Source: an uncultured archaeon (lineage in GTDB: Archaea; Asgardarchaeota; Lokiarchaeia; Sigyniarchaeales; SOKP01). From it: a DNA stretch of 64,000 nt. Positions 1-2,782 of the stretch are shown piece after piece. The notes below the pieces were generated by a model that saw only the letters and a list, made by a program, of their open reading frames with translations, ran no database searches and was not told the origin of the DNA. The position numbers and the translations under genes are program-made. Numbering within the stretch: position 1 is the first letter of the stretch; every line of letters begins with the position of its first letter. The stretch lies in NCBI GenBank assembly GCA_964525635.1, contig CAZGJX010000001.1, positions 62,344-126,343 of the forward strand. Direction: 5' to 3'.

Positions 1-930
1 AATAACAGACGATGATTCAATGCAGGGACAGTTAATGCTCTTACATCATCAGGAGTTACATAAGTTCTTCCTAAGATCGCAGCTCTTGCCTTAGAGCATT
101 TCATTAGTACTAAACTTGCTCTAGGACCACATCCTAATCCAATTTGAGGATGGTTTCTTGTTTTAAGAATTATATCTCTAATATATTTTAGAATTCTCTC
201 ATCGATATATACTTGATTTACCAAATTCTGAGCAGCAAGTATTTCTGGTCCACTAGTGATACGTTGGACAGTTGGTGAGTCTCCAGACAATTGTCGTCTC
301 ATGATTTCAACTTCTTCATCATGTTCTGGATAATCCAGCCATAATTTAAACAAAAATCTATCAACCTGAGCTTCAGGTAATGGATAAGTCCCTTCCATCT
401 CTACAGGATTCTCTGTTGCTATTACCATAAATGGTTTTTCGAGTTCCAAGGTTTGACCTTCTATTGTAATTTGCCGTTCAGCCATGGCTTCAAGGAGTGC
501 TGCTTGTGTTTTAGGAGCACTTCTATTAATTTCATCCGCTAATACGATGTTTGCAAATAAAGGTCCTTTTTGAAGCACGAATGTTCCTTCTTCTTGTGAG
601 AATATTTTTGTACCGGTAATATCTGCCGGAAGAAGATCTGGTGTGAATTGTACTCGTTTAAAACTTACACCTAAAGTATTTGCAAATGTTTTAGCCATTA
701 CTGTTTTACCTAGTCCCGGAACGCCTTTTAACCAAATAATTCGAATTGAATTAAATTTCTAGTAAGACGTGTCCGTTGACAAGTAAGGATACAAATAATT
801 GCTGAAGAATTTCTCCACATCCCACAATAACTCTACTTACCTCTGAGAGTACCTCCTGAGCAATTTCTCTTATGGGGGTAATATCTAACTCGCTATGAGA
901 AGCTGTTTTTATTTTACTTGGTGTTGACAT
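1..930 (-). CDS. moxR: MoxR-family AAA+ ATPase, split by a 31-nt intron-like insert; exon 1 = 930..759, exon 2 = 727..1 (runs off the window)
   Basis: Manual translation. ATG at 930 gives MSTPSKIK...[25 protein letters not shown]. After removing 31 nt it continues [15 protein letters not shown]...[15 protein letters not shown]...[32 protein letters not shown]...[22 protein letters not shown]...YVTPDDV, with no further stops. These are canonical MoxR motifs. Absent from the ORF track. Confidence 0.95.
728..758 (-). other. Putative bulge-helix-bulge (BHB) mRNA intron, 31 nt (AAAUUUAAUUCAAUUCGAAUUAUUUGGUUAA)
   Basis: Contains an in-frame UAA and shifts the frame; excision restores CTA GAA GGC GTT. 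Exon-exon helix ACGUCU/AGGCGU, central helix UACU/GGUU (one U-U), 3-nt bulges AG|A and AA|A, internal hairpin UAAUUC/GAAUUA. Confidence 0.8.
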
Positions 931-1012: not shown

Positions 1013-2782
1013 TTACATATTGTTTACAACCCATTCCATTTCAAAGAATAGGTCTTCAAATTCTATTTCATTTTTAATTTTTAATTTTCCTACTTTTAAA
1101 TTTAACATATTATCAATAAAACGTGATATTCTCTTTACTTTATTCCTTGTGATATTTGGATCTTTTCGTTGAACCAAATCAATTACGTTTTTTGTAGTTA
1201 TTTTCATATCTCCTAATTGAGCATGTAATTTTCTATCCAATCTTCGATTAAGTAAAGTGAGTGCTTTATTAAATTGTCTCTTTTCATGATACCACTCTAT
1301 TTTTTTTGCAAAAAATGATGAGGTTCTAAATCTCATTTTTTCCTCTTTTTTTTCTTCTTTTTCTATTTTCTTTTTCTCAGCTTTCTTTCCTTTTTTAGGT
1401 AGATACCTTCTTAAAGAATAAATAGCAAGTAAAGGATAAATCCAGGCCGTAATTGGATTTGTACTTAGATGTATAACATATTGTAATACAATTCCATAAA
1501 TTCCAGCGGAACTTAAATCTCTTGATTGTTCAGGGCGAATATGTGCTTCATCAAAAGCTATAACCCAATCATCTGGACCTTCATTATATGTAAGCCACTC
1601 TATTACATTCATTGCTAATTGTTTATTATCATAACCACCTCGATCAATTAGCTCATTATTCCATAAACTTGCATCAGAAGAAACAAATATACGCGATTTA
1701 GTTGTCTCTTTTGCTAGGAAAACGGCAGGTGTAATTGGGTAACCTAATGGAATCTTCAATAAATCGGGATCAACATCACCAAGAAATGAAGACATAAAAG
1801 ATAAATCTATAAAATCATCATTAAAATCATATTTTTTATCCCCATTTTTATCAACAAAACTATATTTTCCACTTGCTTCACCGACTAATTTCCATCCAAA
1901 AGCAGAAATTAAAGGATCTCCTACTGCTGCTGATGCTTTTGAAAGAATAACTTGATTAACATTATCAGTTAGGCCTTGATAATTATACAATTGAGTTATT
2001 TTTGGAAATTCGGGAGTTGTGTCATATGATTCATTATCTCTTAAATATCCTCTTGGAAATAAAGTCACTGGAACTAAATCAACCGGATCTGCTCCTTCAT
2101 GCAATAAACTTAAAGCACTTGCTATAAATATTTGCCATAATAATTCTGAAGTAGAACCATGATCATGACAAATCAAAATAGAATTACGACCCTGTAAAAA
2201 TTCAACAAAGTATGGAATTTCAAAAATGGGATTATAGAAAGAATTGGGGCCCATAAGTATCAATAGTATAGATTTATTTAACCTCTCTGTTGCACTTAAA
2301 CTTGTCTGTATTGACATTACGTCATACTCATAGTCATTATATCCAGGTTCTCCATCTTCTAAAAGTTCTCTAAATTCTGAACATCCATTCCAACGATTGT
2401 TATATATTGAAAAATTATGATCATTTATCCCTTTATCAATGACAGGTCCGAGGAGGGGAACAAAAGAAAATCCAAAAATTATGATGAATAATGCATTTTT
2501 ATATAGAGATCCTTGTGATTTACCTCTGGACTTCAATTCACGTGATTTTTGAGTTCTAACGTTCCTAATAAAAATGATGAGACCTATAAATGAAAAAATA
2601 GAGCCTAAATAACATACAAAAGGGATATAAGTTATAACAACAGGTAATTGTCCGGGATTTACCCTCTGAAGATAAATAATAAAATCTTCAAGAAAGAGAC
2701 CAACTACAATTAAATAAATTATAAAAAATGTATAAAGAATTCCTTTTGAGACTTTTACACTTTTTTTATTTGTATAACTCAT
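1013..2782 (-). CDS. DUF4350-like membrane protein of MoxR clusters
   Basis: N-terminal TM helices, FSIYNNRWNGCSEF, SRIFVSSDASLWNNELI...N..LA.N..EWL and IAFDEAH motifs; adjacent to moxR. Confidence 0.75.
   Translation of the reverse strand: MSYTNKKSVKVSKGILYTFFIIYLIVVGLFLEDFIIYLQRVNPGQLPVVITYIPFVCYLGSIFSFIGLIIFIRNVRTQKSRELKSRGKSQGSLYKNALFIIIFGFSFVPLLGPVIDKGINDHNFSIYNNRWNGCSEFRELLEDGEPGYNDYEYDVMSIQTSLSATERLNKSILLILMGPNSFYNPIFEIPYFVEFLQGRNSILICHDHGSTSELLWQIFIASALSLLHEGADPVDLVPVTLFPRGYLRDNESYDTTPEFPKITQLYNYQGLTDNVNQVILSKASAAVGDPLISAFGWKLVGEASGKYSFVDKNGDKKYDFNDDFIDLSFMSSFLGDVDPDLLKIPLGYPITPAVFLAKETTKSRIFVSSDASLWNNELIDRGGYDNKQLAMNVIEWLTYNEGPDDWVIAFDEAHIRPEQSRDLSSAGIYGIVLQYVIHLSTNPITAWIYPLLAIYSLRRYLPKKGKKAEKKKIEKEEKKEEKMRFRTSSFFAKKIEWYHEKRQFNKALTLLNRRLDRKLHAQLGDMKITTKNVIDLVQRKDPNITRNKVKRISRFIDNMLNLKVGKLKIKNEIEFEDLFFEMEWVVNNM

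Follow-up and report, generated by a model that had tools for sequence, protein, structure and literature searches.

A moxR gene on the minus strand at the left edge of the window (the whole 64,000-nt stretch of DNA analysed here) is interrupted by 31 nucleotides immediately before its Walker A motif and is intact elsewhere, which raises the question of how, or whether, a MoxR protein is made from it. The evidence assembled below indicates that the insert is very probably a bulge-helix-bulge (BHB) intron that would be removed from the mRNA by the tRNA-splicing enzymes.

The interrupted moxR gene

The minus strand reads GGA CAC GTC TTA CTA G/AAATTTAATTCAATTCGAATTATTTGGTTAA/AA GGC GTT CCG GGA CTA GGT AAA ACA, where slashes mark the ends of the insert. 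In the register that restores the frame, the insert occupies positions 758..728 (minus strand, 31 nt, AAAUUUAAUUCAAUUCGAAUUAUUUGGUUAA) and brings a stop codon and a frameshift into moxR (AAA_3), between GHVLLE and GVPGLGKT. Exon 1 (759..930, minus strand) starts at an ATG at 930, codes for M...VNGHVLL and ends on the first base of a Glu codon; without splicing, reading goes on as EI and then meets a stop. Exon 2 (1..727, minus strand) completes the Glu codon, continues as (E)GVPGLGKT and comprises 268 codons in total, with its stop 82 nt past the left edge of the window. Exon 2 matches positions 15-131 of the AAA_3 profile (E 3e-56) together with AAA_lid_2, and it can be aligned over its full length with intact orthologues and has no second lesion. 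Exon 1 aligns with residues 1-58 of the same orthologues, and the exons joined across the E/G junction give the reading found in 25 intact orthologues. Sequence, Pfam match and orthologue alignment thus agree with the initial annotation, which had described an otherwise intact moxR broken at its Walker A junction.

The surroundings are those of a MoxR AAA+ ATPase. In addition to an AAA_3 domain with the Walker A motif GxxGxGKT and an AAA lid, an adjoining DUF58/VWA partner gene was found: directly downstream of moxR, beyond the window, lies a gene with DUF58 and VWA_2 domains. Upstream is a co-oriented gene of 589 aa with a weak DUF4350 match (1013..2782, minus strand), and the three genes together are the usual MoxR operon.

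The initial annotation had proposed that reads be used to confirm the insert in DNA. In three other salt-marsh runs, contigs cross it (300-806, 300-941 and 300-896) without differences or gaps, so the insert is genuine DNA and not an assembly artefact; DNA-type contigs from four runs contained no joint across the insert. A single copy of the 31-mer exists in the 4.45-Mb, 26.8% GC genome, even when up to three mismatches are tolerated, and is therefore neither a repeat nor a copy of a mobile element.

Distribution of the insert and its candidate BHB motif

The search for moxR covered 40 relatives first and later the whole family of 135 genomes, 126 of which had a match, and the junction was read in each. 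A homologous insert was present at the same E/G junction in five species-level genomes, namely every one of the four species in the window's genus (G000, the window's own genome, and G001, G002 and G003) and one species of another genus (G012). The insert is 31 nt long in G000, 30 nt in G001, G002 and G003, and 32 nt in G012. All remaining moxR matches in the family read a contiguous GAR GGN with no insert. An intronless lineage recovered at 94% identity by moxR protein search (P0001, locus L088) has an unbroken LLEGVPG, the same order of three genes as G000, and 83% nucleotide identity to G000, a value equal to that of G000's own congeners. The comparison of orthologues proposed in the initial annotation thus showed the insert to be precisely present or precisely absent. 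The MoxR tree is compatible with one gain followed by losses as well as with two gains or a transfer. A pattern scan of metagenomes for new variants gave two true matches, both in contigs identical to known intron types. Finally, different BHB introns interrupt moxR at other sites, at TP/D in G012 and at AMAE/KQV in G007, and both restore the frame.

In the predicted fold of the pre-mRNA (all positions on the minus strand), an outer exon-exon helix h would pair ACGUCU of exon 1 (770..765, extended by GGA at 774..772 past a bulged C771; strand 765..774) with AGGCGU of exon 2 (726..721, extended by UCC at 720..718; strand 718..726), giving 6 bp plus 3 past the 1-nt bulge. UACU, near the end of exon 1 (761..764), would pair with GGUU, near the 3' end of the intron (730..733), to form a central helix of three pairs and one U-U. 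The bulges AGA (758..760) and AAA (727..729) would lie on opposite strands. The remaining intron would fold into a short helix and a hairpin (inner helix h', 734..757): AA at 757..756 with UU at 735..734 (2 bp), a 2x1 internal loop, and a 6-bp hairpin formed by UAAUUC (753..748) and GAAUUA (742..737) around the loop 747..743. An (alpha-beta)2 splicing endonuclease would cut after the second base of either 3-nt bulge (AG^A, after G759, and AA^A, after A728, leaving A727 as the first base of exon 2). RtcB would then ligate ...CUAG to AAGGC..., with CUACUAG/AAGGCGUU as the predicted spliced junction, and the 31-nt intron would be released, probably as a circle.

The motif is a relaxed BHB, with bulges AGA and AAA and a central helix of three pairs plus U-U in G000, G002 and G012; in G001 and G003 the U-U is replaced by U-A, which gives 4/4 pairs. 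The outer helix adds little to the evidence, since it is largely built into the GHV/GVP codons, as in the intronless orthologues, which average 4.7/6 of its pairs. That the exon-exon helix already exists in intronless orthologues suggests that the moxR site may have been pre-adapted. Two hairpin pairs of G012 have changed on both strands in a compensatory way (U-A to A-U, and U-A to C-G). Covariation of the helices among orthologues, which the initial annotation had proposed to look for, is suggested by compensatory changes in the stems, which amount to few events, drawn from four distinct intron sequences in two or three lineages.

The initial annotation had also warned of a slipped register, and the warning proved apt. 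In the register described above (R1; UACU/GGUU with U-U, bulges AG^A and AA^A), 31 nt are excised and the frame is restored; in the other (R0; ACUA/UGGU, bulges GA^A and UA^A), 29 nt are excised and the product is out of frame, with CUAGA/AAAGG as the expected junction. The R0 central helix has 4/4 pairs and scores one base pair above R1. Energies were computed with central helix and bulges imposed on the fold: R0, which lies on the same helix as R1, was more stable by 2.1-2.6 kcal/mol in G000, G002 and G003, and R1 by 0.3 kcal/mol in G012; these constrained folds thus revealed no thermodynamic preference for the in-frame BHB register in G000, G002 and G003. For relaxed motifs cut by (alpha-beta)2 enzymes such a preference is no strict requirement. 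The insert region as a whole folds at -27 kcal/mol (z -4.2 against shuffled sequence), its minimum-energy fold lacking a BHB and combining the exon-exon helix with a single 3-nt bulge (UAA) and a hairpin, and the energy of R1 was reached by 13 of 3000 shuffles of the intron. Thus the BHB fold originally drawn stands as to its geometry, which all variants have and which brings each of them back into frame, but differs from the fold of minimum energy.

Comparative data favour R1 as the probable register. Its cut rule yields ...CUAG/AAGGC..., translated as LLE-GVPG, in each of the four variants, although their lengths are unequal (30, 31 and 32 nt), and the central-helix change in G001 and G003, the hairpin changes and a further change in G012 point in the same direction. 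In G012, G-C replaces A-U as the first h' pair, and an A x C mismatch appears in the helix of R0. These observations bear on the possibility that the transcript is spliced mostly through the 29-nt register and that competition from mis-splicing throttles or switches the output of MoxR. The greater stability of R0 in three genomes, its 4/4 central pairs and the conservation of both registers within the genus are in keeping with this. The idea is, however, purely speculative, and we regard it as unlikely: the changes in G012 break R0 and strengthen the in-frame register, and so speak for selection acting on the latter alone; protein-bound BHB motifs are poorly described by nearest-neighbour energies; and similar ties occur in several other introns of this genome that offer no reason for regulation. 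With splicing in the 31-nt register as the preferred reading, moxR poses a testable question, namely how an endonuclease would choose between two competing registers.

The enzymes presumed by the initial annotation are encoded in the host. EndA is represented by two paralogues, 202 and 204 aa long, at C18:18750-19358 (minus strand) and C105:9984-10598 (plus strand), both of which contain the N-terminal and the C-terminal endonuclease domain (PF01974, PF02778); RtcB is encoded by one gene, on C119 (PF01139, E 3e-166). By reading of the sequences, the catalytic His appears to be present in one EndA paralogue and lost in the other, and the predicted pair fits the (alpha-beta)2 type. Asgard EndAs are (alpha-beta)2 enzymes with an L1 loop linked to a broad, relaxed-BHB specificity (Kaneta et al., PMC5829648), and relaxed motifs are frequent among cbf5 introns (Yokobori et al., PMC2738675). 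Cleavage, ligation and the choice between the two registers are inferred.

Similar inserts in other genes

The initial annotation had guessed that such splicing might occur genome-wide. In a homology census, coding-like ORFs from 2.4 Mb of the single-contig relative G067 (MoxR 87% identical) were compared with G000, after a coding-score filter against antisense ORFs. Among 1304 orthologue-like pairs, 11 gene-splitting inserts of 30-40 nt were found in G000, in the genes for RNA polymerase A' (at GHFGH/IELA, 40 nt), RNA polymerase A'' (C71:20883-20912), aEF2 and aIF5B (both at GHIDHG/KT), CTP synthase, a Ras-family GTPase, a RagA-like GTPase, a DeoC aldolase, a nucleoside-phosphorylase-like gene, a small protein, and moxR itself as the positive control. 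When the exon-2 ORFs were scanned against Pfam, 10 of 10 began mid-domain. A BHB with at least 3/4 central pairs in the frame-restoring register was present in 10 of the 11 inserts, which bears out the guess. The exception is the RNA polymerase A'' insert, which was rejected as a clean BHB (2-3/4 central pairs in any product-preserving register). Three further census events of 21 nt (C40), 12 nt (C109) and 105 nt (C50) were dropped as unconvincing, and a plus-strand event on C109 is the antisense image of a minus-strand intron on that contig.

Together with introns in a thioredoxin gene and a CinA-like gene, the ten census inserts other than that of RNA polymerase A'' made up a test set of 12 introns. 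In all 12 the cut rule restores the frame with at least 3/4 central pairs in that register, and the frame-restoring register is best or tied-best in 10; that of moxR is second by one base pair. A blind genome scan based on BHB geometry and ORF restoration was without power, giving in-frame to out-of-frame ratios of about 1:2 at every stringency, also after a codon-usage filter, owing to adjacent same-strand genes in a 27% GC genome.

Inserts in about 1% of the sampled genes would extrapolate to a few dozen per genome. A Loki-type Asgard archaeon, among the closest prokaryotic relatives of eukaryotes, thus appears to need splicing for about 1% of its genes, including those for RNA polymerase, two translation GTPases and CTP synthase, with moxR as a clean, well-sampled example; this bears on mRNA splicing without a nucleus or spliceosome. 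A connection with the origin of eukaryotic introns or with IRE1/RtcB splicing, as raised in the initial annotation, is speculation and is unsupported by the present measurements.

A further reading, which we offer tentatively and consider rather improbable, is that the mini-introns are a spreading population and not relics, inserted by EndA and RtcB acting in reverse, or by a similar route, into exonic half-BHB sites. The unrelated introns of aIF5B and aEF2 lie at the same GHIDHG/KT spot with the same exonic half-site AUGG-AA, and moxR has three different intron sites across three genera; together with a pre-adapted moxR site, these observations would fit. Were it true, a Loki-type archaeon would possess a protein-spliced mobile intron system in about 1% of its genes, and register competition of the kind seen in moxR could let splicing tune expression.

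Selection, alternative readings and known systems

Within the genus, exon 2 has a dN/dS of 0.022-0.039 at a dS of 0.7-1.4, where synonymous sites are near saturation; the initial annotation had named relaxed selection on exon 2 as evidence against splicing, and the selection found is purifying instead. Exon 1 has a dN/dS of 0.10-0.28 among the intron-bearing genomes, and in the stretch from the insert to the first ATG the nine codons for GVPGLGKTV show only synonymous differences across the five genomes. Judged by these substitution patterns, moxR is under purifying selection across the insert and is not a dead gene.

Public annotation gives a different picture. For the window's moxR and for three other intron-bearing genomes, public proteins consist of a 259-aa N-terminally truncated ORF, and a full-length MoxR 100% identical to the joined exons was not found in the protein collection. 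As the initial annotation had anticipated, such genes are miscalled in Asgard gene inventories, MoxR being listed as 259 aa without a P-loop.

The insert might instead stay in the mRNA, the ribosome shifting to the +1 frame, with 10 extra residues, or hopping over it in the manner of gene 60. In G000, beyond the TAG, no stop closes the frame of exon 2 within the insert, a shift to +1 at GAA-A would be possible, and a hairpin lies 3' of the junction. However, the 30-nt variants of G001-G003 are in frame and contain three stops (TAA, TAG, TAA), and their +1 frame misses exon 2. No single recoding event would therefore serve all variants, and neither frameshifting nor read-through would rescue the 30-nt variants, for which only removal works. 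Ten residues added within the AAA+ beta1/P-loop junction would be unusual, and twelve unrelated genes have BHB geometry, and not a recoding signal, in common. Known cases of translational bypassing are T4 gene 60 and the mitochondrial byps of Magnusiomyces, which resemble moxR in that an otherwise intact gene has a gap in its coding sequence, some tens of nucleotides long, that contains a stop and a hairpin. Bypassing needs matched take-off and landing codons, whereas the moxR variants conserve no such pair (CUA to UUA in G000, with UAA as the landing codon in G001 and G003). We consider recoding very unlikely.

Even less credible is that moxR is a pseudogene killed by the 31-nt insertion, with no MoxR made. 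The stop and frameshift of the unspliced gene and the truncated ORF of the public annotation would agree with this view. It is contradicted by the low dN/dS of both exons (0.02-0.04 and 0.1-0.28), by an insert kept in five species-level genomes near synonymous saturation without a second lesion, and by Walker A codons that vary only synonymously although they lie 5' of the first ATG. In addition, RNA polymerase A', aEF2 and aIF5B have inserts of the same kind; no essential gene present in single copy can be a pseudogene, and the organism must therefore remove the inserts. Least probable of all is a split MoxR made of two polypeptides, one of 59 aa from exon 1 and one of 259 aa that starts at the ATG at 698: both ORFs are present and gene callers report the longer one, but this product would be without GVPGLGKT, whose codons are conserved 5' of its ATG with synonymous changes only, no ATG, GTG or TTG occurs from the TAG to the ATG at 698, and the tail of the exon-1 ORF varies between variants.

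Removal of the insert by splicing has a close parallel. A BHB intron in the pre-mRNA of cbf5 (a pseudouridine synthase) of Crenarchaeota was reportedly described by Watanabe in 2002 and Yoshinari in 2006. The cbf5 BHB intron of Crenarchaeota is treated by Yokobori (2009, PMC2738675). Like cbf5, moxR has a short intron in its coding sequence with BHB boundaries (often relaxed), its host has a hetero-oligomeric EndA of broad specificity, and the intron is gained or lost among close relatives. In contrast to cbf5, moxR is an AAA+ ATPase gene split just before its Walker A motif in a Loki-type Asgard host, and its intron is not a lone case but one of at least a dozen in a single genome. The splicing of cbf5 has been shown experimentally, whereas we infer that of moxR. 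The moxR intron is predicted to work like the cbf5 pre-mRNA intron, the sequence features expected of a BHB intron being present apart from a thermodynamic preference.

Protein-only mRNA splicing is also known from HAC1/XBP1, where IRE1 cleaves the mRNA and RtcB or Trl1 ligates it under stress regulation. The proposed splicing of moxR would likewise be spliceosome-free and protein-only, with stem-loop sites, joining by a tRNA ligase and a change of frame. It differs in using EndA in place of the IRE1 kinase/RNase and a BHB in place of two 7-nt loops, and no homology is implied.

A literature search for archaeal mRNA BHB introns returned only cbf5 and an intron in the 5' UTR of Haloferax HVO_1309 (PMC7714728, PMC2738675). 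The intron population in Asgard archaea is widespread and essentially undescribed. Cleavage of the HVO_1309 mRNA of Haloferax volcanii at its 5' UTR BHB intron was confirmed in vivo and in vitro (PMC7714728). This transcript, like that predicted for moxR, is an mRNA that serves as a substrate of the tRNA splicing endonuclease; its intron lies in the untranslated leader and leaves the reading frame uninterrupted, whereas that of moxR breaks the frame.

The tRNA introns of Asgard archaea, many of them non-canonical, are described in bioRxiv 10.64898/2026.10.13.758758, which leaves mRNA unmentioned, and in PMC5829648. They have motif, cut rule and presumed enzymes in common with the moxR intron. 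Unlike them, the moxR mRNA would need nucleotide-exact cuts to keep the frame and has no tRNA body to aid recognition. Five tRNA introns of the genome obey the cut rule, a loose calibration in that they were called with Aragorn, whose calls are mostly unreliable here, and one of the five has the same metrics as moxR (3 central, 6 outer and 2 inner pairs).

Inserts that split conserved genes

Besides moxR, conserved genes in the genome of the window's organism are split by 10 more inserts of 30-40 nt each (coordinates 1-based). These lie in the genes for RNA polymerase A' (contig C71:17580-17619) and A'' (C71:20883-20912), aEF2 (C151:5048-5079) and aIF5B (C19:11080-11109) and, with genes assigned by order of listing, in CTP synthase (C17:44839-44869), a RagA-like GTPase (C62:3369-3399), a Ras-family GTPase (C27:33768-33797), DeoC aldolase (C3:4428-4457), a nucleoside-phosphorylase-like protein (C109:3066-3095, minus strand) and a small protein (C105:6386-6416). 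A clean, frame-restoring bulge-helix-bulge (BHB) motif was found at nine of the 10; the exception, in RNA polymerase A'', is a poor match, with 2-3 of the four central pairs formed. The inserts in aIF5B and aEF2 break two different translational GTPases at the same point of the P-loop, between GHIDHG and KT, and have in common the exonic half-site AUGG and an AA bulge, while the introns themselves are unrelated in sequence. The moxR insert likewise adjoins the P-loop. This pattern could reflect preferred insertion sites or the spread of introns from paralogue to paralogue.

Presence and absence of introns in moxR

Within one family, introns occupy three sites in moxR, since orthologues from two other genera carry introns different from that of our genome. 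In G012, a 30-nt intron between QFTP and DLLP (locus L023 on contig C55, at about 1585-1614 of the locus) accompanies the intron between Glu and Gly and forms a textbook BHB, with the central helix CACC/GGUG and a 9-bp stem. The G007 gene contains a 29-nt BHB intron (GCAG/CUGU) between AMAE and KQV (locus L032, contig C26, minus strand). An intronless moxR is found at 1501-2478 of ENA contig k141_594543 (locus L088), from a lineage that is as close to our organism as its own congeners (83% nucleotide and 94% amino acid identity) and has the same gene order around moxR. Its Leu-Leu-Glu-Gly codons read CTT CTT GAG GGT, indicating that, where the intron is absent, conservation does not extend to the BHB's exonic half.

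Splicing endonuclease, tRNA introns and database annotation

Two EndA paralogues are encoded in the genome. Judged from sequence, the paralogue at C18:18750-19358 (minus strand), in which the catalytic His is present (LEHSPF), looks like the catalytic alpha subunit, and that at C105:9984-10598 (plus strand), which reads NEDSAKF at the equivalent place, looks like the structural beta subunit. Aragorn identified 50 tRNA genes genome-wide, including two designated tRNA-Stop(tta), and called introns in 18; many of these calls are oddly placed and lack a BHB at the called boundaries, and calling tRNA introns here needs a dedicated tool. In public gene calls of the intron-bearing genomes, MoxR is a 259-residue protein that starts at MAKTF and lacks Walker A (window 3-698, minus strand; database proteins P0126, P0121, P0124 and P0127). 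Databases list such intron-split genes as shortened proteins and do not flag them as pseudogenes.
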